Assembly: GCA_965203325.1 (NCBI GenBank)
Contig: OZ241875.1
Location: 4,192,001 to 4,256,000, forward strand
Direction: 5' to 3'
DNA length: 64,000 nt
Origin: a bacterium
GTDB taxonomy: Bacteria > UBA8248
Below, piece after piece: positions 33,116 to 51,591 of this stretch. A program made the position numbers and the translations under genes. The notes beneath the pieces were generated by a model. The model searched no databases. It was not told the DNA's origin and worked only from the letters and a program-made list of their open reading frames with translations. Numbering within the stretch: the stretch's first letter is position 1; each line of letters begins with the position of its first letter.

Positions 33116-34090
33116 TCAGGCGGCGATTTCGAGATGGGGCGATTCCCCCAGGATGAGGGAGCGGAATTTTTCCAGAATGTGAGGATTTCGCCGGACGATC
33201 TCGAACAGCATCCCCAGGCTGAGGTGGTTGCCGAAATCATCGTCCCATTCCAACTGGTTCTTGCAGTTCTCCCTTGTCAACCGGAAGCGGGACCAGGAGA
33301 GTTTCCCGTCGGCTTGTTCATCCATCCCCACGATGAGTTCGTCTCCGTAAAACCAGATCCACATTTCCAAATCGTTGACGCGGACGGGTTCGACTTCGGG
33401 CCGCCCGCCCTTGAACCTGCCGAATGCGCCCACGCGGGCGAATGAGGGAACGTCGTCGCCGGTAACGCCGAGCTTATGGAGAATCTCCATCCCCAGTTCG
33501 AATGAAATCTCGGGGTCGTCGTTGTTGTGGGTGGAAAATTGTCCCACCACATCTTTCTCGCCCAAGTCGATTTTGAGCAGGGCGTATGGCTTCTCTCTCT
33601 TGAGAAACAGCCAGAACTTGAACTCGCCGGCTTCGGTTTGTTCCCAGTATCTTTCTGCGTCCTCGCGCTTTCCGACGCAGATTTCGAGAGTTTTTCCGAT
33701 GGCCATGAGCTTCTTGAGGGAGAGCACCTCTTCTAGCCGGAATTCCCCGCTGAGGGGGATGATTTTTGGGGCGGCTTCTGCTTCGGCGCGCCTCTCGCGG
33801 GCGTCGGTCAATGCCTTTTTAAGGTGGCTCACATTCTTGCAGGCTTCTTCGAAGGAATGGCGGCAGCTCTTGAGGAGTTTCCCGGCCCTGCGCCTCACGG
33901 CCTCGTCCTCATGCCCGGAGCACTTGAGAGCTTGCCGGATGGACCTGAGTGCGGTGCGCACGGTTCGCTCGCCGGTCTCTCCCTTCTCTTGCAGGTATGC
34001 GTCGAGCCCTTTCTTGAATTTTTCGAGGGGGAAATCCTCGCCTGCTTCTTTTTTCAGGCGGTTCCACTGCATCAGGCATTCGGCGTTCAT
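33116..34090 (-). CDS. Hypothetical protein
   Basis: Long ORF with GGAG RBS before MNAECL; no recognised family. Confidence 0.65.
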   Translation of the reverse strand: MNAECLMQWNRLKKEAGEDFPLEKFKKGLDAYLQEKGETGERTVRTALRSIRQALKCSGHEDEAVRRRAGKLLKSCRHSFEEACKNVSHLKKALTDARERRAEAEAAPKIIPLSGEFRLEEVLSLKKLMAIGKTLEICVGKREDAERYWEQTEAGEFKFWLFLKREKPYALLKIDLGEKDVVGQFSTHNNDDPEISFELGMEILHKLGVTGDDVPSFARVGAFGRFKGGRPEVEPVRVNDLEMWIWFYGDELIVGMDEQADGKLSWSRFRLTRENCKNQLEWDDDFGNHLSLGMLFEIVRRNPHILEKFRSLILGESPHLEIAA

Positions 34091-34133
34091 GTTTTCTCCT
34101 TCTTCATCAACCCGGTTGAAAGAAAACGCGGCT

Positions 34134-34307
34134 TTACGATTTGAACCAGCCCTTCTTCTCGGGCTTTGGCGGAGGAGGTGGGGGAGGATATGCCCGCTCC
34201 AGAGCGTCGGCAATTCTTTCCAGCGAATTACTGATCTCGAGAAATTTGCTAAATGCCGCAATAATTACTCCCTTTTCCACAGTGGTAAAGATGGAATCAT
34301 TTGCCAT
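34134..34307 (-). CDS. Small hypothetical protein with Pro-rich C-terminus
   Basis: MANDSIF...LERIADALERAYPPPPPPKPEKKGWFKS; AGGA RBS. Confidence 0.55.
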   Translation of the reverse strand: MANDSIFTTVEKGVIIAAFSKFLEISNSLERIADALERAYPPPPPPPKPEKKGWFKS

Positions 34308-34469
34308 CGTTTCATCCTTTCCTGGCTGTATAGTTTGCGCGATACGCCACGAGTCCGTAACGCAACCATGCCCTGTCTTCATGTTCGAGTCCTTCCCGAA
34401 ACCAATCCTTCACCATCTTATTGACCCATTTCATCGCGTCATTATGAATTTTGTTCTGTTTCGTTTCAC

Positions 34470-35450
34470 TCATTTTTCAAATTGGCTCTCCTGTTCGTCC
34501 GCCTCGTCTTCCGGGCCGGTTTCGCCGCTCAACATTTTCCCGAGTTTCACGGCGGCGGCGATCATTTCCTCGCAGGCGGCCCATTGATCGTCCGTGATCT
34601 GCGCCTCCAGCCAATTCAGGCGCTCACGTGTCGCGTCTTCGCCCTCGCCGCGCAGGCGCTTGGGGATCTGGCCGAGGCGCGCGTGCCCGTGGGAGAGGAC
34701 CCACCCGGCGCGCCGTGAGCCGCCGGTGATGCGCGCTCGGCTCTCGGGGAAAAGATAGCCCCTGCAGCTGATGTCGGGGTCGAACTCGACGTCGGCGGGG
34801 TCGAGCGCGCCGTTGCCGGCTTCCAGGTTTTCAGCCAGTCGCTTCAGGAAATTGGAGAAGGGGTTCCCGTTTTCCCGATACGCCTCCCAGCGGGGGTCGT
34901 CCCACTCGAGGTTTCCGGGGTGGCGGAACAGGTCGCGCCTCCCGATGGATTCCTCCTCCTCCTCATATGCCCACCCGGAGTCTGCGAGATGCTCGGGCAG
35001 GGCGCGGTTGAATTCTTCGAGGACGTCTCTGGCTTCCTCGACACGGCGGCGGCGCTCGGCGAGGCTCAATTCGGCGAGGAGGGTGAAGAGCATGGGGGCC
35101 TCCTCGATGAGTCTGTGCACCTCCACCCCGTAGTGTTCCTCCACCATGTCGTAGGCGAGGGCGGTTTCGCTGTCCAAGTGAACCCTGGGGCCTGAGGCTC
35201 TCGAAGCGGAATGGATTCGGGCTTCTTCCCGCACGAGTTCGGATTCAGGAGCCTCGGCCAGAATTCGGGGGTTTGAGAGTCCGAGAGCGCCGGCGATGAG
35301 CCTCACGGTGGCCCCGTGGGATTCGCCTGCATATCCGCCCTCGATGCGGCCGATGGTCTTCTTGTCGACTTTCGCCCTGTCGGCCAGTTCCTGCTGGCTC
35401 AAATTCCTGATTTTGCGCAGCATTTTCAGTGTTTCGGGTTGTATCTTCAT
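34470..35450 (-). CDS. XRE-family HTH regulator with large C-terminal domain
   Basis: LKMLRKIRNLSQQELADRAKVDKKTIGRIEGG. Confidence 0.8.
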   Translation of the reverse strand: MKIQPETLKMLRKIRNLSQQELADRAKVDKKTIGRIEGGYAGESHGATVRLIAGALGLSNPRILAEAPESELVREEARIHSASRASGPRVHLDSETALAYDMVEEHYGVEVHRLIEEAPMLFTLLAELSLAERRRRVEEARDVLEEFNRALPEHLADSGWAYEEEEESIGRRDLFRHPGNLEWDDPRWEAYRENGNPFSNFLKRLAENLEAGNGALDPADVEFDPDISCRGYLFPESRARITGGSRRAGWVLSHGHARLGQIPKRLRGEGEDATRERLNWLEAQITDDQWAACEEMIAAAVKLGKMLSGETGPEDEADEQESQFEK

Positions 35451-36090
35451 CGTAATGAGCCTCGTGTGCGGAAGGTTGGTGTTCTCCGTGTTGCAGGTAA
35501 AGATAATCCTTTGCAATGAGGACATCAAGAGGAATATTGGGGGAATATGTATATCAATAAAGAGATATTCAGTATATTTTAGTGATAATGTCCCTGATAT
35601 AGGGTGTTGTAGGGTTTTGAGAGGATTGCACGGGAGATTCGGGTCGAAGCCGAAGGGGAGAGTAGTGATTTTCACCTTTGCTCGTCTTAGAGACAAGAGC
35701 AGTTTCGGGCATTTTCGATTGTCCTGTAAGGTGCTGTTATTAGCTTAGTTAACAGGTTGCCATGAATCTTCCCTGGCAGGCCCGTAATCAAAACGAAAGC
35801 GGGTTCATTACAACTCCAGAGCAACCCGGCGCGCGGGGGTCGTCGGACCTCAGGCCCGTATGAAGATGCAAGGACCGGTCCGAATCGATTACGCGAGCTT
35901 GAAAGTTTTCCGTTCGAGTACCGTTTTCCCGATCCCGTATCGATGACCGTATGTGGACGTACATGGACACCAGCATAGGACATAGAGATGCGGTGACCGG
36001 CATATCACCGCACTCGGCGAGTCGATACGGACGAGCGTGGCATGATAGAACTTATGGCCCGTGATCGGGAGCGAGTGAATCAGGGACAAC

Positions 36091-37140
36091 ATGAGGGATT
36101 CGTCAGCCATGGTCGTGCCGAAAAACGAGGGGAGGGTATGCGATGCAGTCGTCAGGACCCTCGAAAAATGGACACTCGAGACGCGCTCGGATGTCCGCCG
36201 TCCCGACAAGGAGGGAGGCATTCCTCCCGTCGACCTCCGTGTGAAGATCGGCTCCCGGGAATATGCGATCGAGCACACCCGGATCGAGTCGGTTGAAAAT
36301 CAGATTACGACCGTGTTTGTCGCGAGACGGATCACTGAGCACATCAAAAAAACTATCCCGGAGCCTTTTTCAAGCCCGGCCTACTACGAACTGCAATTCC
36401 CGGTCGACGTTTCCCTGCCCAAAGGCCGAGTCAAAAGAGAACGAGCACTTGGTGCTCTCGTCGAATGGCTCCGAGCGAGCGAGAAAATCCTGCGCGAGCG
36501 GAGCTCCGACCACATCTTATTGGTCCGCGATCCTTCTTGGTCCGATGATCGCATCCAGGGAACCCCGCCGGGATTTGACTGTGAATTCGAACTGCTGCGA
36601 TGGCGGAGTGCACGACTCGTGCAACGAAAGCCGGGATCACTTTCGTTCAGATTCATTCCTCCGGACAATCTGGAAAGCCCGCGTTTGGAGAGTCTCCGGC
36701 ATGCCTTTTCCAGGAAATGCCCCAAGCTTGAGGACTGCAAGGCGGATGGCGCACGTACCGTTCTGGTTTTGGAAAGCGGTGATCCGGGCCTTACGAGCTT
36801 CGAGTTCCGCGGAGACCTTCTCCCTTCGCTGCTATCGGCGTGCACAAATGCGCCAGACGAGATCTTCCTGGTGGAAACCCGCAGTGAACATTGGTCGGTG
36901 CAGCTGCTCAAGCGCGACGGGGCTCATTGGCCTGACACCGGAATGCCCGAAATGGGCGTCTCCTACTACGACCCCGATCCATCGTCCCTGCCGGGTATAC
37001 CCGAATGGCTTGCCGGCATCCCCCAATGGATGCGCGATGCCATGCAGTACGACCGCATGTATACGCCCTTCTTGTCGGGGTGGGCTCCCAAAACCTTCGA
37101 GAAAGGCGAATTGTCCGATCTGACGGCAACACCGGCGTAA
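36091..37140 (+). CDS. Hypothetical protein, possible PD-(D/E)XK-like fold
   Basis: 349 aa ORF; PVDLRV...AIEHTRIE pattern. Confidence 0.55.
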   Translation: MRDSSAMVVPKNEGRVCDAVVRTLEKWTLETRSDVRRPDKEGGIPPVDLRVKIGSREYAIEHTRIESVENQITTVFVARRITEHIKKTIPEPFSSPAYYELQFPVDVSLPKGRVKRERALGALVEWLRASEKILRERSSDHILLVRDPSWSDDRIQGTPPGFDCEFELLRWRSARLVQRKPGSLSFRFIPPDNLESPRLESLRHAFSRKCPKLEDCKADGARTVLVLESGDPGLTSFEFRGDLLPSLLSACTNAPDEIFLVETRSEHWSVQLLKRDGAHWPDTGMPEMGVSYYDPDPSSLPGIPEWLAGIPQWMRDAMQYDRMYTPFLSGWAPKTFEKGELSDLTATPA

Positions 37141-37720
37141 CCACCATGCCCGAACAATCATCGAAAGACGTGTAAGGGAAAACGGTCAATCAGACAGGAT
37201 CGGGAAAATCCGGGCCGTTGGCATACAATCCACGAAGGAATGTCCGCCTGTTTCGGCTTGGCCGTATTGTATTTGGCGGACGACCCGGAACATCAGCATA
37301 CGATGCGATAAAAACGAATGAAACAAGGGAATCGGCGCCGTTTCGACCTGCGGACGGGCAGCGCGCAGCGCCTTGCCGCGGCCGGGGCTTCTCCGGTCGA
37401 GATGCAACTCGCCGGGCGCCGCCAATCGCCGGTCATGCCGGAGCGCCATTCGCAGGGACGGCTCGCGAAACAGCCCACTGCGGCGTGAACGAAAGAGGCT
37501 TTCGAGCTCTCGCCCGGGGGGCGGCGTCCTTCCTTTTTTTCCGTAGCGCCTCGCTGCACGTTCCCCGGCGACCTTCGTTTTCCGGAAAACCCCCTTGATT
37601 TCAGGTTGAATCGATGAGCGACCCGCTCGCGGACGCGGTCGCGGACTCTTCCCGGGTGTACCTTTCGCGCTAGAAACAACGATTGAACGGGCGCTCGCAC
37701 TTTCCTTATGTTCGCGCGCC

Positions 37721-38440
37721 ATGACCGCGTTCGACGACGATACCGGCACCCCGCTGGACGAGCGGCTGCGCCGGAGCATTGCGCTCTGGCGCGCGCGCCG
37801 CGGGATGAGCGCGAGGCGCTTCGGGGTGGGCGCGCTGGGCATTCCCGGCTTCGTGGGACTGCACGCCCGGGGGCGGCCCCTGCGGGTCGACACGGCGGAC
37901 CGGGTGCTCGCGTTCATGGGGTATCCGCCCCTGGGACCGCTCCTGCGGGCCGAGGTCGAGGCGTTTCTCGCGGTGAGCGGGACGAAGGTCTCGATCCTGG
38001 GCGAGGAGACCGTGGGGAATCCCTCCTTCGTAGGAAGGCTGCGCCGGGGCGCCTCGCCGTATCTCAAGACCTTCGACCGGGTGCGCGCCTGGATGGCGGC
38101 CAACGCGACGGGAGAGGAGGTCCGCGCCATACGCGAGAGGCTCGCGGACTTGCCCGATCCGTTCGACGGGACGTGGGACGCCGCCGGGGAACCCGGGGCC
38201 GCGGGAGACGTCGATGAACTTGCGGAGGAGAACCACCTAGACACGCGGGAGGCGGCCGCCTGGCTCGGCCTCTCGCCCAAGACGCTCGAGCGCTACCGCG
38301 TGAGCGGAGAGGGGCCGGATTTTCTTCGCACCGGATACCGGGTGCGCTACCTGCTCGAAGACCTCGAGAAGTGGGCCTCCGCCCGGAGGTGGACTTCCAC
38401 GTCCGAGGAGAGAGCCGCCCGGAGAAAGAAGAGGCGGTAG
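37721..38440 (+). CDS. Tandem Cro-like domains fused to an excisionase/AlpA-type HTH
   Basis: Two similar ~60 aa units (G.P.FV....RG..........DRV.A.M), then LDTREAAAWLGLSPKTLERYR..GEGPDF...RVRY. Confidence 0.75.
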   Translation: MTAFDDDTGTPLDERLRRSIALWRARRGMSARRFGVGALGIPGFVGLHARGRPLRVDTADRVLAFMGYPPLGPLLRAEVEAFLAVSGTKVSILGEETVGNPSFVGRLRRGASPYLKTFDRVRAWMAANATGEEVRAIRERLADLPDPFDGTWDAAGEPGAAGDVDELAEENHLDTREAAAWLGLSPKTLERYRVSGEGPDFLRTGYRVRYLLEDLEKWASARRWTSTSEERAARRKKRR

Positions 38441-38850
38441 AGAGATATTCGAGAGAAGACGGGCGTCCTGCACACTGCGGACCTGCCCGGAGCGAAGGAC
38501 ATGCTCACGACGAAACGCCGGGCGGACCTCACCGCCCGTAGCGCAGCCTCGCCATCGCGGCCACGGCCGCCGAGTGCCCCCCCTCGTAGAGATCCCCCCA
38601 GGTACGCCGCTATCCCGGCGTCGATCTCTGGGTTGCCCGAACGCTCGAATCCCCTAAGCGTCGGGTCGGATGGTCTTGCCCCCGTCGTTATGCCGAGAAG
38701 CCAACCTTCCGGGTCGGTGGTCGTGTCCATTCCCTGGGGCCGCCCGAGCGCCTCCTCGATTGCCAAGTATGGACGACGACGGGGAATTTCCACAAAAAAA
38801 AGCCGTTTCGCAAGCGAATACCGGCGAAACGGCGGGTTTCTGGAGTCCGA

Positions 38851-39041
38851 TAATTGACGTTATCAGAAAATTTAACACCTCTCACGGCCATGTCAAGCAC
38901 GAATCCGGGGTCCCCGGAGGGGTTTCGGGTGCCGTTTTGCGTCTTTTTTCGCTCATGTTTCGCTCATTTGCAGCCCGAATGCCCCCCGAAACGGGTTTTT
39001 CGGCGGAAAACGGGGCTTCTGGGGGCCGATAACGTCAATTA
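38851..39041. promoter_or_regulatory. Candidate invertible promoter segment (14-bp inverted repeats, promoter on minus strand)
   Basis: TAATTGACGTTATC 38851-38864 and GATAACGTCAATTA 39028-39041; minus-strand TTGACA(38896-38891)-16 nt-TAAATT(38874-38869) with TGn extension. Confidence 0.7.
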
Positions 39042-39158
39042 GCGGACACCAGCCCGGGTTCGAGGCGGCGCATACCGCAGGAATCCGCCTCTCGCGGAAA
39101 GACTCACGACCGGTTGCGTCAGCTTGAACCCGAAATCTCTGAACAGGGGGCATTCCAA

Positions 39159-42158
39159 ATGAAGAACATTGCACGGATCTCGATGCTGCCGGCGGCGGCG
39201 TTCTGCAGCGCGGTCCGGCGGCGTGAAGTGCGCCCGGCCGGGGCGCGCGAGCCGGCTCCCTCGACATCGGCGGGCTCCAGACGGCCTGACGCCCGCACCG
39301 GGCGCGGCCGCGCCCGCCGCCTCTCCCTCCTCCTCCCCGTCCTCGCGCTGCTGCTCGGCGCGCTCGGCCTGTTCGCCCCCGCGCCGGCGGAGGCGCAACG
39401 CGCCGGCCCGACTGTGACGGCAACCGCCGGGGACGCGAGCGTCAGGGTGAACTGGACCTTCACCGACACCGATCCCGCAGACTGGGAAATCGAGTACGGC
39501 GTGCATCCCAGCGGCTCGACCTCCACGGTGACGGAGTTTTCTTCGGGCGCCAGGTCGAGGACGATTACGGGCCTGACGAACGCTACGACCTACCGGTTTC
39601 GCGTGCGGGGAATAAACGCAAGACCCACCCAGTGGTCGGGCTGGGTCACGGCGACCCCGCAGGCCGCGACCCCCGGCGACCCCACGGGCGTGACGGTGAC
39701 GCCGGGGAATGCGCAGCTGTCGGTGTCGTGGACGGCGCCGTCGGGGACGGTGACGGGCTACGACGTGCACTACACGTCCTCGTCGACGGTTGCGGCGGGC
39801 GCGACGGTGCAGACCGTCTCGGCCGCGGCCGGCTGGCTGGCGCACCCCACCCGCACCGCCACCGACACCTCGACCTCGCAGACGATCTCGAGCCTGATGA
39901 ACGGCACGCCCTACCGGGTGCGGGTGCGGGCGAAGAACACCGCCGGCGACAGCGCCTGGGTGGTGAAGAGCGGCACGCCCAGCGCGCCCTCCGCCACGGC
40001 CGTCTGGTCGGCGACGCTTACGCCGCAGACGGTTACCGGTGGCGTTGGCTGTCTCACCAAGTCCCAATGCGATTCGCGACTCACCGACAACAGCTTCACA
40101 GTCGGCGGGACGGACTATCACTTTACTTTTCTCGTGGACTTCTCCGCCACGGGCCTTCAAGCGGCCTTCAATGCGGTTCCGAACGCTACGCTCCGGGCGC
40201 TCAAGTTTTGCGTGGGCACGACGGGGTATGAGATTGGCGCAGGGATTAGTCAGGCACTCTCCGCGTCCGCCATCGGCTGGTCCGCCGGCACCCCGGTCTC
40301 GCTGAGCATCGACACGTCCTGCACGGCGCAGATGACGCAATCCACGAACGCGAACCTGAGCGGTCTGACGGTGGGCAGCAGCACGAGTTCGGGCGGCCAG
40401 TACACGGATTTCAGCATCGGCACCTTCGGGGCGACGACGACGACCTACACGGCGTCGGTGGCGAACGACCAGACGCATGTGAAGCTGACGCCGACGGTGG
40501 CGGACACCGGCAAGGCGACGGTCGGGGTGCGCAAGGGCCAGGGCAGTTTCACGGCGGTGACGAGCGGCTCGGCGAGTTCGGCGATCGCGCTCGACGTGGG
40601 CGCGAACACGCTCACGGTGCGGGTGACGGCCGAGGACACGACGACGACCAAGGACTACACGGTCACCGTCACGCGGCGGCAGGCGCAGCAGACCCTGTCC
40701 ACGAACGCGGACCTGAGCGGCCTGACGGCGGGCAGCGCCACGAGTTCGACCGGCACGTTCACGAATTTCAGCATCGGCACCTTCGCGGCGACGACGACGA
40801 GCTACTCAGCGTCGGTGGCGAACGACCGGACGCATGTGAAGCTGACGCCGACGGTGGCGGACACCGGCAAGGCGACGGTGACGGTGGCCGGCAACGCGGT
40901 GAACAGCGGCTCGGCCAGCGGCCCCATCGCGCTTAGCGTGGGGGCCAACGCGATCACGGTGCGGGTGACGGCCGAGGACACGACGACGACCAAGGACTAC
41001 ACCGTCACCGTCACGCGGCAGGCGCTCCCGGCGAAGGTGACGACCGCCGTCTCCGGCACCATGACGGTCGGAGACGGAGGGAGCTGGAAGGGCTTTCGAG
41101 CCACACCAGTTGTTGGAGCGCTCTCTGACGCCGACTTCACCTACGGCGGGGTCGATTACAGGATCCTCGGTCTCCGGCTCGGAAACTCCGGCTATCTCGC
41201 CTTGCACCTGAACAAGGCCCTGGACCGCAATTGGGGCCTTGTGCTGAACGTTGGCGACAGCCGGTTCCGTATCGCGGATGCCGTTCTGTCCACGGGCCCG
41301 GGCTACGAGGGTGTAATAGCGGGCTGGTTCTATTCCAACCAGGGCGAAACGCCCCCGAGCTGGACCGTCGGCGACACCGTGCCGGTGAGCCTGGGGACGC
41401 TCACTTCCTCCACGGTGAAGCTCTCCGTCAGCCCGAACCCGGTGAACGAGGGCGCGTCGGCGAGCGTGGAGGCGTGCCTGTCGGCGGTGCCGCAGGGCAC
41501 CGTGCGCATTCCGGTGACGCTGAGCCACGGGACCTCGGAGGACGGCGACTGGGGGGTGTCGCTGACGGGCGACACGGACGGCCGCCTGCCGATCAGCACG
41601 GCGTACACCATCGCCATCAGCGGCTGGCTCCAGCGCGGCTGCGGCGTCGTCAACATCCCGACGCACCCGGACAGCGACGCCGACGACGAGACCTTCACGG
41701 TGGCGCTGGACACGGCCAGCCTGCCGCCGGGGGTGCGGGCGGGCAGCCCGGCCTCGGTGGTGGTGAGGATCAAGGACCTCACCGACTTGCCGGAGGTGAC
41801 GCTGCGGGCGGTGCGCCGCACGGTGGCCGAGGGTTCGCCGGTGGAGTTGCAGGTGGCCCTGACGGAGCCGCTGGCGACCGACGTGGCGATCCCGCTCAGG
41901 GTGAGGTGGGTCACGTCGGAGACGGCCGACCACGGGTTCGTCAGGAGCATCACGATCGCCGCCGGCGCGACGAGCGGGTCGGGCACGATCAGGACCTACG
42001 AGGACGACGACACGGACGACGAGCGCTTCCAGGTAGCGGTGATCCAGCCGGACCTGCCGGAGGGCGTGGCGCCGGGCTCACCGTCCACGGTCGGGATCAC
42101 GATCGTCGACGCGGCGAACGCCCGGCTGCGGGCGCTTGACTTGAATTCCGGCAATTAA
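39159..42158 (+). CDS. Secreted surface protein: 2x fibronectin III, 2x cadherin-like beta-sandwich, Calx-beta-like domains
   Basis: Extended signal peptide ending APAEA; FN3 motifs (GLTNATTYRFRVR, LMNGTPYRVRVRA); TNANLSGL...VRVTAED...YTVTVTR repeats; DSDADDETFTV. Confidence 0.85.
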   Translation: MKNIARISMLPAAAFCSAVRRREVRPAGAREPAPSTSAGSRRPDARTGRGRARRLSLLLPVLALLLGALGLFAPAPAEAQRAGPTVTATAGDASVRVNWTFTDTDPADWEIEYGVHPSGSTSTVTEFSSGARSRTITGLTNATTYRFRVRGINARPTQWSGWVTATPQAATPGDPTGVTVTPGNAQLSVSWTAPSGTVTGYDVHYTSSSTVAAGATVQTVSAAAGWLAHPTRTATDTSTSQTISSLMNGTPYRVRVRAKNTAGDSAWVVKSGTPSAPSATAVWSATLTPQTVTGGVGCLTKSQCDSRLTDNSFTVGGTDYHFTFLVDFSATGLQAAFNAVPNATLRALKFCVGTTGYEIGAGISQALSASAIGWSAGTPVSLSIDTSCTAQMTQSTNANLSGLTVGSSTSSGGQYTDFSIGTFGATTTTYTASVANDQTHVKLTPTVADTGKATVGVRKGQGSFTAVTSGSASSAIALDVGANTLTVRVTAEDTTTTKDYTVTVTRRQAQQTLSTNADLSGLTAGSATSSTGTFTNFSIGTFAATTTSYSASVANDRTHVKLTPTVADTGKATVTVAGNAVNSGSASGPIALSVGANAITVRVTAEDTTTTKDYTVTVTRQALPAKVTTAVSGTMTVGDGGSWKGFRATPVVGALSDADFTYGGVDYRILGLRLGNSGYLALHLNKALDRNWGLVLNVGDSRFRIADAVLSTGPGYEGVIAGWFYSNQGETPPSWTVGDTVPVSLGTLTSSTVKLSVSPNPVNEGASASVEACLSAVPQGTVRIPVTLSHGTSEDGDWGVSLTGDTDGRLPISTAYTIAISGWLQRGCGVVNIPTHPDSDADDETFTVALDTASLPPGVRAGSPASVVVRIKDLTDLPEVTLRAVRRTVAEGSPVELQVALTEPLATDVAIPLRVRWVTSETADHGFVRSITIAAGATSGSGTIRTYEDDDTDDERFQVAVIQPDLPEGVAPGSPSTVGITIVDAANARLRALDLNSGN
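40341..41020 (+). repeat. Tandem internal duplication (two cadherin-like domains, ~340 bp each)
   Basis: tccacgaacgcg(a/g)acctgagcgg at 40341 and 40698, with near-identical downstream blocks. Confidence 0.85.
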
Positions 42159-42172
42159 GGGGGGCATGTCCG

Positions 42173-44593
42173 ATGAAGAAGATTGTACGGATTGCGGTGC
42201 TGCTGTCGGCGGCGTTGTGCATGGCGACGGGCGCCGGGGCCGGGCAGGTGAGCCTGGACGGTGCGTTCGACCCGGACCGCGCGACCTACAGCGCGACGGT
42301 GGCCCACGACGTGACCGAGGTCACGGTGAACGCGAGCCCCGAGAACCCGAATGCGCGGGTGACGGTGAACGGCGGCGACCCCGCGACGCCGGTGGCGCTG
42401 GCCGTGGGGAAGAATACCATCGTGGTGGTGGTGACGGCGCCGGACGCGCGCTACACGCGCACCTACACGGTGACGGTGACGCGCGAGGCGGCGCCGGAGC
42501 CGGCGCGGCAGCAGGTGGCGCAGCAGCAGGCGTCGGAGCCGCTGACGGCGGCGTTCGAGGGAGCGCCGGAAGAGCATGACGGCAAGGCGGCGTTGGCGCT
42601 GGAGGTGCGTTTCAGCGAGGCGCTGGGCGAGACCGCGAGCGCTCCGGCCGCGGCCTCTTTCGCCGTGACGGGCGGCAGGGTCAAGCAGGTGCGGAAGGTG
42701 GCGTCCGGCCTGTGGCGGGTGCGCGTCGCGCCGAAGTCGTGGAAGGACGTGACGGTGACGCTGGCGGGCGGGCGCGCCTGCGGCGCGGCGGGCGCGGTGT
42801 GCACGGCCGACGGGAGGGCGCTCACGAACACGTCGAGTATGACCATAGGCGGCCCGGTGCGCATCCGGGTCGCGGACGCGCGGGGGAAGGAAGGCAAGGA
42901 CGCATCGCTGGACTTCGCGGTGACGCTGAGCCGCGCGGCGTCGGGGCCGGTCTCGGTGGACTACGCGACCGAGGACGGCACGGCGGCGGCGGGGGCGGAC
43001 TACACGGCCACGTCGGGCACCCTGACCTTCGCGGTGGGCGAGACGGCGAAGACGGTCTCGGTGCCGCTGCTCGACGACGCCATCGACGAGGGCAAGGAGA
43101 CGTTCAAGCTCAAGCTGTCGAACCCCCGGGGGGCGTATCTGCGGGGGATTCACCGCCAGGCGAAGGGGGTGATCCGCAACGACGACCCGCTGCAAAGGAT
43201 GTGGCTCGCGCGGTTCGGGCGCACGGCGGCGGGCCACGTCGCCGGGGCGATTGACGGACGCCTTTCGGGCGGCGCCGCCGCGGGCGTCGTGCTGGGCGGC
43301 CACAGCCTCTCAGGCAAGGCGGAGCGCGAGGCCATCGAGTCGCGCCTCGCCGAGGCCCTGCTCAAGGAGAGGGAGGCCCGGCTCGGGCGCGGCGAGGAGG
43401 CGCAGGCATCCCCGGTGCGCGAGGTCGCGATGTCCGATCTCCTGCTCGCGAGTTCGTTTCACATGGCCTCGGCGGAGAAGGTGGACGCCGGCTCGCGCTG
43501 GTCGCTGTGGGGCCGGGGCGCGCGCTCCTCGTTCGAGGGCGCCGAGGGCGATCTCTCGCTGGATGGCGACGTGACGACGGCGACCGTGGGCTTCGACTAC
43601 GAGCGCGCGCGCTGGCTGGTGGGCGTGGCGCTCTCGCGAAGCGCGGGCGACGGCTCGTACAAGGCGGGCGGCGCGTGCGATACGGGCTGCGCGGGCGAGG
43701 TGGAGAGCACGCTTACGGGTGTCTACCCCTACGCGCGCTACCGCGTGAGCGGGACGTTCTCGCTCTGGGGCGCTGTGGGCCACGGGCAGGGGGAGATGAC
43801 GCTCACGCCCGGGGGGTCGTCCCCGGTGGAGGCCGACGTGGCGATGGGCATGGCGGCGGCGGGGGCGCGCGGGGTCGTTCTGCCCGCGCGCGCGGCGGGC
43901 GGGTTCGAGCTCGCGCTCCGCGCGGACGTCCTGGTGACGAACACGCGCTCGGACGCCGCGGCGGGCCTTGCGGAGACCGACGCGGAGACGAGCCGCGTGC
44001 GCCTCGTGCTGGAGGGTTCGCGCTCGCTCAGGTTCGGCGATGCGGTGCTGACGCCCTCGCTGGAGATAGGGTTCCGGAACGATTCGGGCGACGCGGAGAC
44101 GGGCGGCGGGGTGGAGGCCGGCGGTTCGGTCCGCTGGACCTCGGGGGCCCTGACGACGGAGGTGCGCGCGCGCGGCCTGCTCTCCCACGGCGAGAGCGGT
44201 TATGAGGAATGGGGCGTGAGCGCCTCGGTGGCGTACGCTCCGGGCTCCGGGGGACGGGGCCTCACGCTTCGGGCGGGCTCCTCGTGGGGCGCCTCCGCCG
44301 GCGGTGCGGAGCGGCTCTGGTCGCAGGCGGCGGGCCTGGCGCCTGCCGGTGCGTTCGAGCCGGGCGGTGCGGGCTTCGAGGCCGAGGCGGCCTGGGGCCT
44401 GGACGCCCCCCGGGGGCTGCTGACGCCCTATACGGGCGTGGCGGTCTCGGGGAACGCGGAGACCTGGCGCGCGGGCGCGCGCTGGAAGCCCGGGGCGGCC
44501 ACGGAGGTGAGCCTCGAGGCGAGCCTCACCGAACAGGCCGGCGGCGGGAGACCCGAAGGCGGCCTCCTGCTCAGAGGCTCGAAGCGGTGGTAG
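42173..44593 (+). CDS. Autotransporter-type outer-membrane protein with partial cadherin-like and Calx-beta domains
   Basis: Signal peptide; VDYATEDGTAAAGADY..DDAIDEGKETF (Calx-beta); WLARFGRT linker; barrel-like C-terminus ending in Trp. Confidence 0.82.
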   Translation: MKKIVRIAVLLSAALCMATGAGAGQVSLDGAFDPDRATYSATVAHDVTEVTVNASPENPNARVTVNGGDPATPVALAVGKNTIVVVVTAPDARYTRTYTVTVTREAAPEPARQQVAQQQASEPLTAAFEGAPEEHDGKAALALEVRFSEALGETASAPAAASFAVTGGRVKQVRKVASGLWRVRVAPKSWKDVTVTLAGGRACGAAGAVCTADGRALTNTSSMTIGGPVRIRVADARGKEGKDASLDFAVTLSRAASGPVSVDYATEDGTAAAGADYTATSGTLTFAVGETAKTVSVPLLDDAIDEGKETFKLKLSNPRGAYLRGIHRQAKGVIRNDDPLQRMWLARFGRTAAGHVAGAIDGRLSGGAAAGVVLGGHSLSGKAEREAIESRLAEALLKEREARLGRGEEAQASPVREVAMSDLLLASSFHMASAEKVDAGSRWSLWGRGARSSFEGAEGDLSLDGDVTTATVGFDYERARWLVGVALSRSAGDGSYKAGGACDTGCAGEVESTLTGVYPYARYRVSGTFSLWGAVGHGQGEMTLTPGGSSPVEADVAMGMAAAGARGVVLPARAAGGFELALRADVLVTNTRSDAAAGLAETDAETSRVRLVLEGSRSLRFGDAVLTPSLEIGFRNDSGDAETGGGVEAGGSVRWTSGALTTEVRARGLLSHGESGYEEWGVSASVAYAPGSGGRGLTLRAGSSWGASAGGAERLWSQAAGLAPAGAFEPGGAGFEAEAAWGLDAPRGLLTPYTGVAVSGNAETWRAGARWKPGAATEVSLEASLTEQAGGGRPEGGLLLRGSKRW

Positions 44594-45234
44594 GGGCGGA
44601 CCCGGGGGGTAGCGCAGGCCGTTCCTCCCGGCCCGCTTCATCGCGGTCCCCCTCCCGGCGGGAGGGGGCGCGCATCCCGCTCTCCCGCGTGGTTTCAGGC
44701 GGCGGGGTTTCCGGCGGTAGTAAAATCTCCTGATCCCGTTGATATCATCGAGAAGCATTCATTTCCCCGGGTCTCGTCCGGAATCCACCTTCCGCAGCAA
44801 GTAATCAAAACGCTAACGAGGGGAATCAAGCCTCTGCGCATCCCGGGGCATGCCTGCCGGATCATTGCGCCATTCCCCTCTTCGGGCCGGCCCGGACAGC
44901 CTGATCGCGGCAATACTCCGGCGCTCCGCCCGGGGCGTGATCGAGCCACTTCCGGCGTTCTTGTCCATGCGCGTCTCCCCTTTCGTCCCTTTCGCTCATC
45001 CCGGGTGCATACGGTAGTCCGCACCGCACGGAAATAAACTGAAAAACCGCCCGCTTGCAAGGGGTTTCGATATCCGCATTCCAGCGCCCGGGGGCCGGGG
45101 CGTTCATCGTGCGCCTCCCCCGGGCCCCGCACCGGCGAGAGGCCGAGCCGGGCCGTGATGGGGCGCGGGAGCCGGGCCGGAGAGGCCGGGCGGCGCCCGC
45201 GATCCCCTTTCTCACAATCCCGGAGGCGCGACCC

Positions 45235-45576
45235 ATGAGTAACCAAAATCCATCCCGCACCGCGAGGCTGCTCGTCCTGGCGGGACTTGGCCTGGCCCTC
45301 CTCGCCACGATTCTCCTTCTCGCGGCAGGCAGCGGCCTCCGCCACCTGGGGGCCGTCTGGGCCTGTTCGGCCCTCTGGTGCCTCCTCACAGCCCTCTCGT
45401 GCGTCCTGTGGCGGGGGTTCCGCCACGGGGACTGGTCCGCCTTCGCTCGCTACGAACTGCCCGACGGGAAAGAAGAGGATTTCGAGTGGTCCGCCCGCAC
45501 CGGACGCTACGCCTGGCGCCGCGACGTCGAGGAGGAGGAACTGTTCGGCCAGGACCCGGACGCACCCTTCCCGTAG
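45235..45576 (+). CDS. Small membrane protein
   Basis: GGAGG RBS, two hydrophobic helices. Confidence 0.55.
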   Translation: MSNQNPSRTARLLVLAGLGLALLATILLLAAGSGLRHLGAVWACSALWCLLTALSCVLWRGFRHGDWSAFARYELPDGKEEDFEWSARTGRYAWRRDVEEEELFGQDPDAPFP

Positions 45577-45763
45577 AAGGCCCAAGCCGAACGAAGACTC
45601 TCCTGAACGAACGGACCGCCTTCTTTCCCGCCGGCGGTGGCTCTGCGCCACCGGGAGGCGGAGTCCGACCGGGAGGGGGCGGCGGAGGGGAGCCGGGAGG
45701 GAGTCTTCTCGCGTTCGAGGCTCGCCTCCGCCGCCATCATCCACCCACCCAAGGAGGCGCGCG

Positions 45764-46060
45764 ATGCGAAAACCCGGACCCGAAGCGAGTACTTTCCTCA
45801 CCCACCTGTTCGGCCGAGGCCTTGAGGACGAACGCTACGAAGTGAAACGCTACAAGTCCGCCGATGGCGACATCAGGCCCGTGCCCGACAGGGAGAGCGG
45901 GAGGCGCAAGAAGAAGAGAGCGACGGCCTCGCGGAAAGCCGTACGCGAGATGCGGCCCGCGCGGGACGAACTCATCGTCTGCACGGGGATCAGGATCCCC
46001 GGCAGCGGGCTGCAACTGTGGGGCGAGCACCTCGTGTGGGCCCGGATGCTGTGCCGGTGA
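45764..46060 (+). CDS. Hypothetical protein
   Basis: AAGGAGG RBS before MRKPGPEAS. Confidence 0.55.
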   Translation: MRKPGPEASTFLTHLFGRGLEDERYEVKRYKSADGDIRPVPDRESGRRKKKRATASRKAVREMRPARDELIVCTGIRIPGSGLQLWGEHLVWARMLCR

Positions 46061-46153
46061 GGAACTCCCCCCCGGGAGGACTTCCGCCCGCAAGCCGTCT
46101 CGCCGGCCCGGCGCCGGCCGCACGATTCCATCCACCCCAGGGAGGGAGGCGGG

Positions 46154-46960
46154 ATGCCCTACAAGGACCTGGAAAAGGCCCGAGCTTACGAGCGCGAGCG
46201 CCACCGCAAACGCACCGCCGACCGACTCGCGCGCGGCCTGTGCCCCCGGTGCGGAAAGATTCCTCCCGCGCCCGGGCGCAGTCTGTGCGAGCCCTGCGGA
46301 GAGAGGGATCGGGAGACCCGACGCGCCCGATACGCCGAAGCCCGAGCGGGGGGAGCCCCATATGGCGGCCGCTGCCCCGAGAGCCGCCGCCGCATGGCGC
46401 GCGAGAGGGCGAGGAAGCGCAGGCGCGAGCGGGTGGAGACCGGCTTGTGCCCGCGCTGCGGACGCGAGCCCGTCGAGGCCGGCGCCGTCTGCGAACCCTG
46501 CCGGGAGACGAGGCGCGCTGAAGAGCGGAAGCTCTACGCCGCCAAGAGAGCGAAAGGGCTTTGCGGACGGTGTGGTGCGGAAGTCGTCGATGAGGCTTCG
46601 ACGTGCGCTTCGTGCGCCGCAAAACAAGAAAAACGCCGGCCGCGCAAGAACACCGCGAGCCGGGCGCGCTATCGCGACAGGCGGGCACGGTCGGTTTGTG
46701 TCGACTGCGGCGCCCATGCGGACGCAGGGGTGAGATGTACTCCCTGCGCGCGCCGATCGTACCACTCCTCGGGAGAGCACAAGGGGATGCCCGTCTATCC
46801 GCCGCGCTTCACCGTGGTCGAACTAGCCACGGGCGAGGAGCACGGACCCTGGGACTCCTGGGAGGAGGTGGCCATGTGCCTCGCCTTCGAGAAGCTCTCC
46901 CGCGAGGAAGTGGAAGTCATCGAAGACGCACCGCTCATTGCGTCCATGACCGGTTGGTAG
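46154..46960 (+). CDS. Arg-rich protein with four CxxC...CxxC zinc-ribbon repeats
   Basis: GLCPRC..LCEPC, GLCPRC..VCEPC, GLCGRC..TCASC, VCVDC..RCTPC; GGAGG RBS. Confidence 0.75.
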   Translation: MPYKDLEKARAYERERHRKRTADRLARGLCPRCGKIPPAPGRSLCEPCGERDRETRRARYAEARAGGAPYGGRCPESRRRMARERARKRRRERVETGLCPRCGREPVEAGAVCEPCRETRRAEERKLYAAKRAKGLCGRCGAEVVDEASTCASCAAKQEKRRPRKNTASRARYRDRRARSVCVDCGAHADAGVRCTPCARRSYHSSGEHKGMPVYPPRFTVVELATGEEHGPWDSWEEVAMCLAFEKLSREEVEVIEDAPLIASMTGW

Positions 46961-46981
46961 TCGCCGTCCTCGCCACGCCCT

Positions 46982-47833
46982 TCATCCCGTGTCGACCTCG
47001 ATCAGCAGCCGGCAATGGTCGCTGGCGCCCCACTCATCCACGTCGTTGAGCGCGCGGACCCGCACCCTCTCGTGAAAACCCCGCGAGGCGAAGGCGTAGT
47101 CGAGCTGGCGGTCGGCTTCCGCCGGCGACCTGCCCGGGGGATAGTGCGTCGGGACGTTCCGCGTATCGGCCGGCACGTCGGGCGGGGGCGACGCCGCCTG
47201 CCTGCCGCCGGGCGCCTGCGGACCCAGGAACTCAAGTCCCAGCGCATCCATCCGCGCCCATACCGTGCGCTCGCGCACGGGCAGCGACAGGCTGTGGCCC
47301 GTCGCGCCGTAGAACATGTTCAGGTCGCCCGCGGCCAGGATGCGGTGCATGGATGGGTCGGTGTGGCCGATGAAGGCCGAGAGGTCCGAGATGATCCGGT
47401 GCGCCGAAACGTCGGAAGCGCCGACCCTGAACGGACTTCCTGTAGTAGGATGGGGCTTCATCCAGCGCGCGTACATCGAGACCGCCACGAACGCCTCCTC
47501 TTCGTCCTCACGCGGGACCACCCGCGCGGCGGCGATGGTGCCGATGCCGCTCACGCCGACGTCGCCCCCGCCGAGGTGGCTGATCGGGGGGACCTCGCGA
47601 AAGCGCTCGACCCGGACCCGGCCGGACAACCCGGCGATCAGACACCATCGGTCATAGAGGTGACGGCTCCAGAAAACGTCGTCCTCGCGGGGGAGCAGGT
47701 GCGCCAGGTCGCCAGGCGGGCTCCCGGCTTCCTGGAGCAGCGCGACGTCCGCCTCGTCCCGCCTCGCCATCCTCGCCAGTTCGCGCCACGGCTCCTGGCG
47801 CCTGGCGATATTCCAGCTCACGACCCTGATCAT
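46982..47833 (-). CDS. Endonuclease/exonuclease/phosphatase family protein
   Basis: VVSWNI, ALLQE, AGDLN, QLDYAF, SDH. Confidence 0.88.
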   Translation of the reverse strand: MIRVVSWNIARRQEPWRELARMARRDEADVALLQEAGSPPGDLAHLLPREDDVFWSRHLYDRWCLIAGLSGRVRVERFREVPPISHLGGGDVGVSGIGTIAAARVVPREDEEEAFVAVSMYARWMKPHPTTGSPFRVGASDVSAHRIISDLSAFIGHTDPSMHRILAAGDLNMFYGATGHSLSLPVRERTVWARMDALGLEFLGPQAPGGRQAASPPPDVPADTRNVPTHYPPGRSPAEADRQLDYAFASRGFHERVRVRALNDVDEWGASDHCRLLIEVDTG

Positions 47834-47945
47834 CCCGGAAACCTCCTCTCCACGCCCGCCGGGGTACGTACGGCCGGCCCGCCGCCGGGGGGCAGACCCG
47901 GCCGGGGGGAGGGTTTACGCCGCCCTGCTGCGCAGCCGGCCGGTT

Positions 47946-48308
47946 TCAGTCCGACACGGGGAGCCACCACCACAACAGCCAGGCCGGGAGACTGAGAACG
48001 ACCGCCCAGGCGGCTATCGCGAGCGGGCCGGGGAGTCCCGCCACCAGGGGCGCCGTTACCGCTCCGAGCCCCGCCCACGTCGCCCAGGCGGCGCGGCGCC
48101 AACCCAGCCGCCATATCTGCCGGCAAGCCAGGGCGAGGGGCAACCCGCACGGCGCAAGCGTTGCCGCCGAGGAGGGCAGCATCGGCGTCCAGCCCTCGGG
48201 ATCCGCCCAGAAGCGCACGGCGGCGGTCACGACTGCCCCGACAGGCAGCCACAAGAGCGCGAGCGGCCAGAAGCCGCGCCGTCTGTGCTGCTCCCCTTCG
48301 ATGAGCAT
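47946..48308 (-). CDS. Small membrane protein
   Basis: Four hydrophobic Trp/Ala/Leu-rich segments. Confidence 0.5.
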   Translation of the reverse strand: MLIEGEQHRRRGFWPLALLWLPVGAVVTAAVRFWADPEGWTPMLPSSAATLAPCGLPLALACRQIWRLGWRRAAWATWAGLGAVTAPLVAGLPGPLAIAAWAVVLSLPAWLLWWWLPVSD

Positions 48309-48493
48309 GTCCCATCTGACCCGAATCCCGAGGCGGGCGCAAGTCCGGCATGGCCGGCGGGCGGTCCCCATCGGCTATGAACCTCCCTGGGAGAGGTGGA
48401 GCGAAGCTCGGGGCCGGGCAAAGGCCCGGCAGGGGAGAGGGAGACGGTATCCAGCTCCCGCCGCCGGGGACAACCCTGACAGGAGGCTTGGCC

Positions 48494-48625
48494 ATGTACG
48501 AGAACGACTTCGACATCGACGTTCCCACCACGGACGAACTGCTCGCAGAACTCGGACTCGACGCGTACACGATCCGCAAGATTCGCGACGAGGCGGGGGG
48601 CGAGGAAGAGTTTTGTAGCGTGTAG
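48494..48625 (+). CDS. Small acidic protein (43 aa)
   Basis: AGGAGG RBS; MYENDFDIDVPTTDELLAELGLD... Confidence 0.55.
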   Translation: MYENDFDIDVPTTDELLAELGLDAYTIRKIRDEAGGEEEFCSV

Positions 48626-48703
48626 GGCAAACCGGGGGGGTGGAGAGAAAGGCTCTCTCCCTCCCAACACTTTTTCTCACTCACACCACGAAGGAGAATC
48701 ATC

Positions 48704-49144
48704 ATGGCATTCGGACTCAACCGCGCGGAACTGATCGGGCGTCTCGGCGCCGACGTCACCGTCAACCATCTCACGAGCGGCGGCCGCGTCGCCAACCTGT
48801 CCATCGCAACTGATGAGGGCTACGTCGACAAGCAGAGCGGCGAGCGGGTGGACAAGACCGAGTGGCACCGGGTCGTGACCTTCCAGCCCGGCCTGGTGGA
48901 CATGTTCGAAAAGCACGCGAAGAAGGGCCGCCTGGTCTACGTGGCGGGCAAGCTGCAGACCCGCCGCTGGAAGAAGGACGGGGAAGACTCCGATCGCTTC
49001 TCCACCGAGATCCTGATCGCCCCGGGCGGACGCGTGCAGTTCCTCGACAAGGTGAACGGGAACGGCAATGGCAACGGAAACGGCGCGCACGCCGAGACGA
49101 CGGCGGTGGCGGCTGGCGTTGTGGGGGAAGACATCCCGTTTTGA
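48704..49144 (+). CDS. ssb: Single-stranded DNA-binding protein (mobile-element type)
   Basis: LIGRLGAD, TEWHRVV, GKLQTRRW, C-terminal DIPF. Confidence 0.93.
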   Translation: MAFGLNRAELIGRLGADVTVNHLTSGGRVANLSIATDEGYVDKQSGERVDKTEWHRVVTFQPGLVDMFEKHAKKGRLVYVAGKLQTRRWKKDGEDSDRFSTEILIAPGGRVQFLDKVNGNGNGNGNGAHAETTAVAAGVVGEDIPF

Positions 49145-51062: not shown

Positions 51063-51591
51063 GACGTTCGACACGGCGGGTCGCATCGCCACACAGGCGG
51101 TGCGGCCCGTCGCCTCTCTCCTCGATCACTCCACCGCTCCTCTCCTGGTTACTCCGCTCGCCTCCAACCGCTCAGTCGCCGCGGCGGCTCCCGCCCGCCA
51201 TTCTCTCCGGCAAAAATTCCCCCGTCGTTCGTTCCCACGAATTTGGCAATCTGACGCCCTTCGGCGCTTCGGGTTTCACACCCCACGCAGCGGGCTGCTG
51301 GATGCAGGCCAGTCGTGCGCCAGGCATGGCGTTCCTTGCGCAAACGCCCTCAAATACCGCCCCGCCTTCGCTGGGAGAGCGTGTTACGACGTAACACGCC
51401 CATATCTCATTGAATTCCTTGAGCCTCATAAAAAGCGTATGCTCATGGCATACGCTGGGCATAGTATTTCCCAGGCATGTGTGCTATGAGCTTACAAATG
51501 AATCTGTGCCCAGAGCGACCGGATTTTATTTGTAAATGCAACGATACCGGCGATTTCCCGGCCAATAAATCGAACCATTGGAGGCAAAAAC

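Follow-up and report, generated by a model that had tools for sequence, protein, structure and literature searches.

A probable invertible promoter, one of 16 paralogous cassettes, ahead of surface-protein genes in a bacterium of the UBA8248 lineage

Phase variation of type 1 fimbriae proceeds through fimS, a switch acted on by the tyrosine recombinases FimB and FimE, which are encoded next to it. Identity of the two partner spacers is a hallmark of strand exchange by tyrosine recombinases (Cre, Flp, Xer), the spacer of loxP being 8 bp long, and the master invertase of Bacteroides, Mpi, is a serine recombinase. Many invertible promoters at Bacteroides capsule and surface loci, most of them OFF at a time, have been described (PMC10403206, PMC4611039), and in Clostridioides difficile one tyrosine recombinase of the RecV type serves several invertible sites (PMC5914908). 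Here we analyse a 64,000-nucleotide stretch of a bacterial chromosome (contig OZ241875.1, positions 4,192,001 to 4,256,000; hereafter the window). Positions 38854-39038 of it, ahead of two large surface-protein genes, are probably an inverton, a site-specific switch that works by inversion, and belong to a set of 16 paralogous cassettes controlling genes for surface proteins and lipoproteins; a Cre-like tyrosine recombinase would exchange strands within the spacer of its sites, and the window copy would be flipped in trans.

This reading draws on the anatomy of the sites, the existence of the family, the presence of both orientations among paralogs and in related species, the co-variation of the spacers, the neighbouring recombinase genes with their decay, and the promoter and terminator motifs. 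The mechanism itself is already known from tyrosine-recombinase invertons (fimS/FimBE, the Tsr type of Bacteroides and the RecV type of C. difficile). Less usual are the number of copies (16), spacers that are diversified yet matched within each copy, serial loss of the local enzyme, a terminator in the flank and an uncultured, sponge-associated host. Within the limited set of papers searched, PMC11602134 among them, no description of an inverton in sponge symbionts was found, though the supplementary tables of large inverton surveys could list this lineage.

Recombination sites and a family of cassettes

An earlier note, made from the letters of the window, had proposed an invertible promoter with the geometry of tyrosine-recombinase sites, captured pointing away from the genes and bounded by a perfect 14-bp inverted repeat. 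That repeat is present: TAATTGACGTTATC stands at 38851-38864 on the plus strand and at 39028-39041 on the minus strand, and these are the sole two matches in the 64 kb at up to two mismatches (100 dinucleotide shuffles gave a mean of 0.21 matches, with two reached in 1 shuffle). The real repeat is longer, a repeat finder returning arms of 25 nt (38840-38864 and 39028-39052) that match at 23 of 25 positions (92%, 14 perfect). Separating the 25-nt arms are 163 nt, and the whole switch measures ~213 bp with its repeats. That the repeat exceeds chance is established mainly by the repeat family described below, less by the statistics of this single locus.

Both sites have the form GATAA-N6-TTA(T/G)C, and their spacers, TTGACG (38854-38859) and CGTCAA (39033-39038), are mutually reverse-complementary; the dyads with reverse-complementary 6-bp cores that the note had claimed can thus be read directly at both sites. 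Its other coordinates hold as well. The ATG of the first surface gene, at 39159, lies 117 nt past the repeat end at 39041, and the similarity of ~30 bp reported to the left of each site is real (38822-38853 and 39001-39032; 32 nt in direct orientation, 75% identity by the repeat finder). Three of the four window arms fit the pattern C-T-G-G-N3-C-C-G-(A/C)-T-A-A, and the fourth (reverse complement ATTTTCTGATAA) overlaps the -10 region of the promoter. The parts of the switch and its immediate flanks are as follows.

38794..38833, minus strand: predicted intrinsic terminator, a 10-bp GC-rich stem (GCCGUUUCGC/GCGAAACGGC) followed by U8
38840..38864: left recombination site, with outer arm CTGGAGTCCGATAA (38840-38853), spacer TTGACG (38854-38859) and the start of the inner arm, TTATC (38860-38864)
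38865..39018, minus strand: body of the invertible segment, containing the predicted sigma-70-type promoter and the palindrome CCGGGGTCCCCGG
38874-38869, minus strand: -10 element TAAATT with an upstream TG, from the promoter scan
38896-38891, minus strand: -35 element TTGACA, from the promoter scan
39019..39052: right recombination site, with inner arm CTGGGGGCCGATAA (39019-39032), spacer CGTCAA (39033-39038) and outer arm TTAGCGGACACCAG (39039-39052)
39053..39158, plus strand: conserved leader (5' untranslated region in the flipped state), with ~60 nt at its start common to all three downstream gene classes

The case for inversion comes from the rest of the genome, which was searched as one contig of 4.39 Mb (95.5% complete). 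Positions 38780-39160, covering left flank, switch and leader, match at 16 places (c01 to c16, the window copy being c16) with 80-95% identity. The query was divided into left flank, inner segment and right flank, and the strands of the three parts were compared for each copy. At 13 of the 16 places, the window included, the inner segment runs in the same direction as its flanks, a single flank being detected at c06 (no left) and c07 (no right). At the remaining three (c09, ~2,078,046; c12, ~2,672,553; c15, ~3,869,539) it lies on the strand opposite to both flanks. The junctions of these flipped copies have the flank-side arm joined, across the 6-bp spacer, to the far inner arm of the other copies. 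Such junctions are what an exchange within the spacers would yield, and the structure is therefore an inversion switch and not a chance palindrome. With 16 paralogous cassettes, three of them flipped exactly at the spacers, the invertible promoter of the earlier note is supported; it had also pointed to a genome search for further copies and a nearby tyrosine recombinase, and Cre-like genes do adjoin switches of the family.

Eight spacers occur among the 16 copies (TTGACG, TTGCCG, TTGATG, TTACTG, TTGTCG, TTGCTG, TTGCCA and TTGCTA). Within a copy the two are exact reverse complements in 15 of 16 cases, c14 having one mismatch (TTGCCA against TTGCCG); when partners were shuffled 100,000 times, a mean of 2.6 copies matched, the maximum was 10 and no shuffle reached 15. 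The same holds in an alignment of 45 switches from this genome and other species of the genus, in which the two repeats were treated as a helix. Of 270 spacer cells (six pairs per switch), 269 are Watson-Crick paired, with 80 cells changed on both sides and 0 on one side only, and the TAA and TTA triplets flanking the spacer do not vary. Outer positions of the arms are often unmatched (columns 14/219, for example, fail to pair in 41 of the 45 rows). With the partner shifted by 1-3 columns, pairing fell from 82% to 23-51%, and spacers tabulated by hand were matched in 45 of 46 switches, with 22 distinct spacers. Because the spacers match amid unmatched arms, identity is required of the spacer and not of the arms. 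The flipped copies are recombinant exactly there, and identity of partner spacers is found here as in Cre-like systems. The sites are lox-like in build, with two inverted arms of ~14 bp around an asymmetric 6-bp spacer and two such sites in inverted orientation, and strand exchange inside the spacer would turn the 163-bp body around.

Related genomes carry the switch too. The 381-bp query has matches in 11 of 18 other species of the genus and in 0 of 12 genomes outside it, the nearest species (G012) holding about as many copies as this genome. Seven of the 45 aligned switches are flipped, three here and four in other species (L039, L054 = L059, L077 and L078). Homologs of the recombinase described below, at 42-55% identity, occur in metagenome-assembled genomes titled Latescibacterota, Poribacteria and Binatia. 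A simple repeat scan covered 14 loci, 12 distant ones together with L033 and L037 from closer assemblies; at the Poribacteria loci it gave nothing convincing. At three Latescibacterota loci (L042-L044, ~2490-2800), 17-nt inverted repeats of the form ATTTCCGATAA+N6 lie 259-263 bp apart, upstream of recombinase homologs with 53-55% identity. These loci share the CCGATAA arm motif, and their hexamers are matched within a locus and different between loci. The switch type thus seems, from these repeats, to extend beyond the genus.

Several side observations concern the switch itself. Just upstream of the -35 on the promoter strand, at 38905-38917, is the perfect palindrome CCGGGGTCCCCGG, nearly invariant across the 45 switches, which may be a site for an activator or an accessory protein. 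A step in G+C content from ~0.60 to 0.68-0.74 coincides exactly with the switch, and the surface genes beyond it keep the high value (39000-49000); this could reflect the composition of repetitive surface proteins or a foreign origin. No Rfam family lies over the switch, the only match within 36000-42000 being to sRNA-Xcc1 at 37201-37289 (E 0.63; 24.7 bits, the gathering score being 53).

A Cre-like recombinase family and its decay

Tyrosine recombinases of family PF00589 have 38 matches in this genome, and serine recombinases (PF00239) have none in the same 95.5%-complete assembly; of 14 control genomes, 12 had PF00239 matches. At c01, c04, c05, c07, c09 and c11 a PF00589 gene immediately adjoins the left flank and runs divergently to the surface gene. 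These six intact recombinases have open frames of 290-330 residues with a conserved METAA start. A tblastn search with an intact paralog detected N-terminal remnants beside seven further copies (c02, c03, c08, c10, c14, c15 and c16, the window) and no recombinase match beside c06, c12 and c13.

The closest solved relatives of the enzyme are Cre chains, which account for the first 16 of the 19 PDB matches (E 4.9e-13 to 1e-11, over residues 60-286). Its motifs LLRVSE, SKT, GHSLRVG, GRW and GRY align opposite the catalytic residues R/E, K, H/R, W and Y of Cre. Scores against the NCBIfam models of host resolvases are far lower than the cut-offs (XerC, TIGR02224, 48.5 bits against 335; XerD, TIGR02225, 36.1 against 330), and models of the XerA and FimB/FimE types are also weak and sub-threshold (NF007370/NF007371, 21 bits against ~221). 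The enzyme is therefore likely, to judge by these alignments, to belong to a dedicated Cre-like family and not to the host Xer system. The earlier suggestion that host XerC/D may be the invertase is not supported, with model scores of 36-48 bits against cut-offs of ~330 and a decayed Cre-like copy adjoining the switch.

The window retains only part of such a gene.

38451..38736, minus strand: recombinase remnant (pseudogene), of which ~45 N-terminal residues align with intact paralogs and the catalytic domain is wholly deleted

In the open reading frame (ORF) at 38347-38793 on the minus strand, only the N-terminal part (…FERSGNPEIDAGIAAYLG) aligns with intact enzymes, after which it is off frame. 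Relative to the intact frame there is a +1 frameshift, one extra base in a G-run near 38594; in the other frame, …AAVAAMA runs directly into the last eight residues, ARLRYGR, and the stretch has no PF00589 match. One deletion junction is found in all seven remnants (704732|705395 in c01 coordinates, 662 bp, with ~13 nt of shared letters). Since the junction is identical in seven of seven, there was a single deletion, and the orphan cassette was copied afterwards. Six of the seven remnant copies stand unflipped and c15 is flipped; at least one inversion is therefore later than the loss of the local enzyme, and recombinases probably act in trans on orphan copies.

For the window, whose own enzyme is dead, flipping would thus fall to one or more of the six intact chromosomal paralogs. 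We infer both that these enzymes are the invertases and that they reach the window copy in trans. The earlier note had placed the recombinase elsewhere in the genome, which agrees with a local gene reduced to a remnant; an enzyme would be available from the six intact paralogs beside sister switches.

Two side observations concern other recombinase sequences. A 42-residue fragment at 37348-37473 on the plus strand is 76% identical to the C-terminus of the recombinase and lies on the strand opposite to the remnant, ~1.1 kb away; the same arrangement recurs beside c02, c03, c08 and c11, and the fragment may have been left by an older back-to-back cassette or by a rearrangement between copies. 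Scattered over the chromosome are ~11 tandem pairs of tyrosine recombinases (~400-450 residues each, PF00589 match 2-169), for example at C1:737617-739297, 972327-974007, 3831553-3833231 and 4269671-4271319, with one pair just upstream of c10. These pairs look like a multi-copy mobile element with two recombinases.

The promoter, its terminator and the genes behind the switch

The minus-strand element TTGACA-16-TAAATT with an upstream TG, which the earlier note saw pointing away from the genes, was recovered by the promoter scan at 38896..38869, the sole site of its kind in 38200-39600, where shuffles give an expectation of 0.2. Transcription is predicted to start near 38862, inside the left site. 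Invariant in all 45 aligned switches is the decamer CATGTCAAGC, which holds the -35 TTGACA on the other strand; over the whole alignment, column identity averages 80%. The -10 differs among copies, being TAAATT in the window, TATATT in most relatives, and TATGTT and TTAACT-like elsewhere.

Placed between the recombinase gene and the invertible promoter, which faces it in the present orientation, is the predicted terminator at 38794..38833. Its fold has an energy of -31 kcal/mol (z -4.33), and 0 of 200 shuffles were equally stable. A minus-strand RNA from ~38862 would form first a 7-bp hairpin from the dyad of the left site itself, then the 10-bp GC-rich hairpin with its U8 (38833-38794). A simple terminator scan missed this hairpin because its loop exceeds 8 nt. 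A hairpin with T7-8 is found in 13 of the 16 genomic copies, two of them with other stem sequences; in two of the remaining copies a weaker stem is predicted ahead of the T-run, and c06 is without it. The fold of the leader is undistinctive (z -1.55), as are those of the inner segment (z 0.90 and -0.31).

Two further candidates in this region were discarded. A plus-strand terminator-like site at 38927-38944, which with the switch OFF would stop transcripts entering from the left, has a weak stem and is one site where 1.6 are expected. A separate recombinase promoter, (T/G)TGGAA-N16/17-TATACT after the T-run of the terminator, was guessed by eye and does not tell intact copies apart from decayed ones.

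As the segment now lies, the promoter would fire leftward, starting in the left site, and its transcript would meet the hairpin and U8 after ~30 nt, the U-run ending ~70 nt from the start. That would leave the operon at 39159-44593 without a promoter (OFF) and shield the neighbouring recombinase gene. Once inverted, the segment would instead send transcription through the conserved leader into both surface genes (ON). The ON/OFF assignment, use of the promoter and function of the terminator we infer from the motifs. Thirteen copies in this genome are oriented as in the window (OFF) and three are flipped (ON), and the corresponding counts among the 45 aligned switches are 38 and 7. These counts, taken over paralogs that are related and so not independent events, and from assemblies, each of which gives the majority orientation of a single sample, fit a system with few loci ON at a time.

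The genes that would be controlled, and the one upstream that belongs to the conserved module, are these.

39159..42158, plus strand: first controlled gene, a secreted or surface protein of 999 residues with fn3 and Cadherin-like domains (Pfam)
42173..44593, plus strand: second controlled gene, 806 residues with Cadherin-like and Calx-beta domains (Pfam)
37721..38440, plus strand: gene for a DNA-binding protein of 239 residues with a C-terminal HTH_17 domain (Pfam E 1.7e-7, 31.8 bits, above cut-off)

The earlier label of autotransporter is not supported: Pfam gives only fn3, Cadherin-like and Calx-beta for the pair, and the hint of an outer-membrane beta-barrel is sub-threshold. It comes from the C-terminal 476 residues of the 806-residue protein, which fall in no family and where OMP_b-brl scores 16 bits (E 0.012) under a cut-off of 28.7 and PDB matches are to Calx-beta only.

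All 16 first downstream genes look secreted, and they fall into three classes. Class A consists of seven large proteins with the N-terminus MKNIARISML and fn3, Cadherin-like and Calx-beta domains, laid out either as single ORFs of 1145-1822 residues (1145 in c10) or as a pair of ~934-1014 and 806 residues. The single ORF (1418-1822 residues) is seen at c01, c09 and c15 and the pair at c03, c08 and the window, a difference that reflects either gene fission or fusion or a stop that splits the protein. The second class has two proteins of ~1694-1695 residues with fn3 and He_PIG, and the third has seven lipoproteins, which carry an LAGC lipobox and fall in no Pfam family.

Upstream, the recombinase gene or its remnant is followed by a 1.29-kb module (37207-38497 in the window), which recurs at 92-97% identity at 11 or more loci. 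The translation of 37721-38440 is protein-like, and the overlapping minus-strand ORF is Ser/Arg/Pro-rich junk. The 239-residue protein, whose gene is convergent with the recombinase, has two N-terminal repeats like helix-turn-helix (HTH) motifs in addition to HTH_17; possible roles are those of an accessory factor, a directionality factor or a switch regulator. Further upstream, at 33116-35696, are a PcfJ-like ORF (weak, E 0.004) and a protein of 408 residues with HTH_3, which hint at mobile-element remains beside the cassette. A 92-nt tRNA-Ala(CGC) called by ARAGORN inside the gene of the 806-residue protein (43605-43696, plus strand) is probably a false positive in GC-rich coding sequence.

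Alternatives, meaning and known systems

Several points weigh against a switch that is flipped in trans at this locus. Promoter, start site and terminator are predictions from consensus and folding; the variation of the -10 leaves promoter strength uncertain, and the sigma-70 consensus is an assumption for an uncultured lineage. The local recombinase is dead, so the window copy could be frozen, and the shared deletion with differing orientation may come from gene conversion between paralogs instead of inversion in trans. A search of G012 with window positions 35500-42500 found no close ortholog of the locus, the downstream gene having 68-73% identity. L059, a flipped copy in that species, was not accepted as an ortholog: it is the best match to the upstream 3.2 kb, a region that is itself a multi-copy module, and it looks more like c15. 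Public sequencing runs (24 listed, all as Logan contigs and none an RNA run) were compared over 37800-40300 for X1, X2, X3 and X5, and no read or contig in these four has the window locus flipped, their contigs being mostly 70-480 nt, broken at repeats and too short to link orientation to unique flanks. An opposite-strand joint of 38850 to 39041 (depth 27.1 in X1 and 13.3 in X2) was dismissed as a window flip; its letters are those of c09 (38813 A>G, 38816 G>T), a copy that the assembly already has flipped. The runs labelled sponge metagenome contain 23-29% of sampled words, and contigs of X5, one of these runs, have 95-99% identity; this content is in line with a sponge-associated organism.

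One rival reading is a fossil, a true inverton family in which the window copy has been locked OFF since its recombinase was deleted and has kept intact repeats through youth or gene conversion. The remnant is frameshifted and without a catalytic domain, no flipped form of the locus has been seen, and the spacer mismatch of c14, itself an orphan, means that decay does occur. The spacers of the window are nevertheless perfectly matched, and its arms are the same as those of the flipped c09 and c15, which share the TTGACG spacer; orphans with the identical deletion occur in both orientations, and to judge by their sequences the six intact paralogous enzymes would recognise near-identical arms. 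On balance a fossil is unlikely, and we prefer a switch that is still flipped by those enzymes. The question of which enzyme does so has a second candidate in the chromosome-dimer resolvases XerC and XerD of the host, for which two high-scoring PF00589 genes (at 51436 and 402903) may code, and the 6-bp centre between inverted arms resembles the geometry of dif. Beside 13 of the 16 copies there is, however, a dedicated recombinase gene, intact or remnant, of a Cre-like family that scores 48 and 36 bits where XerC and XerD would need 335 and 330, and the CCGATAA arm motif travels with homologs of that family in Latescibacterota. Flipping by the Xer pair is thus very improbable.

Two accounts dispense with inversion altogether. 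As a miniature inverted-repeat transposable element (MITE), a small non-autonomous element inserted independently at 16 sites, the structure would be suitably short (~213 bp) and multi-copy with terminal inverted repeats of 25 nt. Yet at most copies the flanks are conserved with it, the left (at 14 of 16) with terminator and recombinase gene and the right (at 15 of 16) with the leader; in flipped copies the flanks are unchanged and meet the segment at the same base; tyrosine recombinase genes adjoin; and the variable hexamers are inverted, internal to the sites and co-varying, unlike direct target-site duplications. Conserved flanks and the lack of direct target duplications therefore exclude a MITE to within a sliver of doubt. 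Alternatively, the GATAA-N6-TTATC dyads could bind a dimeric transcription factor, such as the neighbouring HTH protein, with no rearrangement of DNA. Each site is indeed a dyad and an HTH_17 gene belongs to the conserved module, but an operator would leave unexplained both the flipped paralogs and the fact that the spacer, and not the arms, is kept complementary between sites; we give it almost no weight.

A broader proposal, which we offer as speculation and hold to be doubtful, is that a self-multiplying 'surface-switch cassette' (HTH gene, Cre-like gene, terminator, invertible promoter and leader) has spread by copying to positions ahead of three unrelated classes of surface gene. The spacer would serve as an address, a few shared recombinases would flip the 16 loci independently in trans, and the OFF state would make a hairpin RNA of ~70 nt. 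If so, different spacers would limit chromosome recombination between loci, most local enzyme genes would then be dispensable, and readthrough of the flank terminator could feed back on expression of the recombinase. The whole would amount to a distributed, spacer-addressed network of phase variation in uncultured sponge symbionts, and would supply orthogonal lox-like sites of natural origin.

The bacteria that live in sponges, which cannot be cultured, must somehow escape digestion by their filter-feeding host or killing by phages. Sixteen surface and lipoprotein loci behind flippable promoters, most of them pointing away in the assembly, suggest surface variation much like that of gut Bacteroides. 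The family also provides a natural data set on the evolution of tyrosine-recombinase sites, in which arms drift and spacers change in matched pairs, and on the loss of local recombinases once paralogs can serve in trans. Natural spacer variants, with closely related Cre-like enzymes, could serve as orthogonal recombination sites. In the window, the operon at 39159-44593 would be annotated as controlled by a switch that stands OFF as assembled, and the small adjoining ORF as a dead recombinase.

Among described systems, fimS with FimB and FimE in Escherichia coli is alike in having a promoter segment between inverted repeats, adjacent tyrosine recombinases and ON/OFF control of a surface structure. 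The window family differs in its Cre-like enzyme, in sites of the form arm-6 bp-arm where fimS has plain 9-bp repeats, in its copy number, 16 in one genome with no functional enzyme beside most of them, and in the terminator of the flank. Cre/loxP of phage P1 shares inverted arms around an asymmetric spacer and the need for partner spacers to match, and Cre is the closest solved homolog, at ~25-30% residue identity by an estimate made by eye. The spacer here is 6 bp, however, so that the 13-8-13 layout of loxP is not found, the arms are unrelated, and a chromosomal promoter is inverted where Cre serves plasmid maintenance.

XerC/XerD-dif is similar in its tyrosine recombinases and 6-bp central region and differs in recombinase family; here pairs of inverted sites surround a promoter in 16 copies, with dedicated enzyme genes adjacent. 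With the multi-locus invertible promoters of Bacteroides the family has in common many surface loci behind similar invertible promoters, most of them OFF, whereas lineage, site sequence and enzyme family are different, no serine recombinase is found here, and the spacers are diversified between loci. The RecV-type switches of Clostridioides difficile offer a parallel for a tyrosine recombinase that serves enzyme-less switches in trans, as would happen here for 10 orphan copies. In the window family, by contrast, several paralogous enzymes coexist, each beside a switch, and it is the shared deletions that point to their action in trans.

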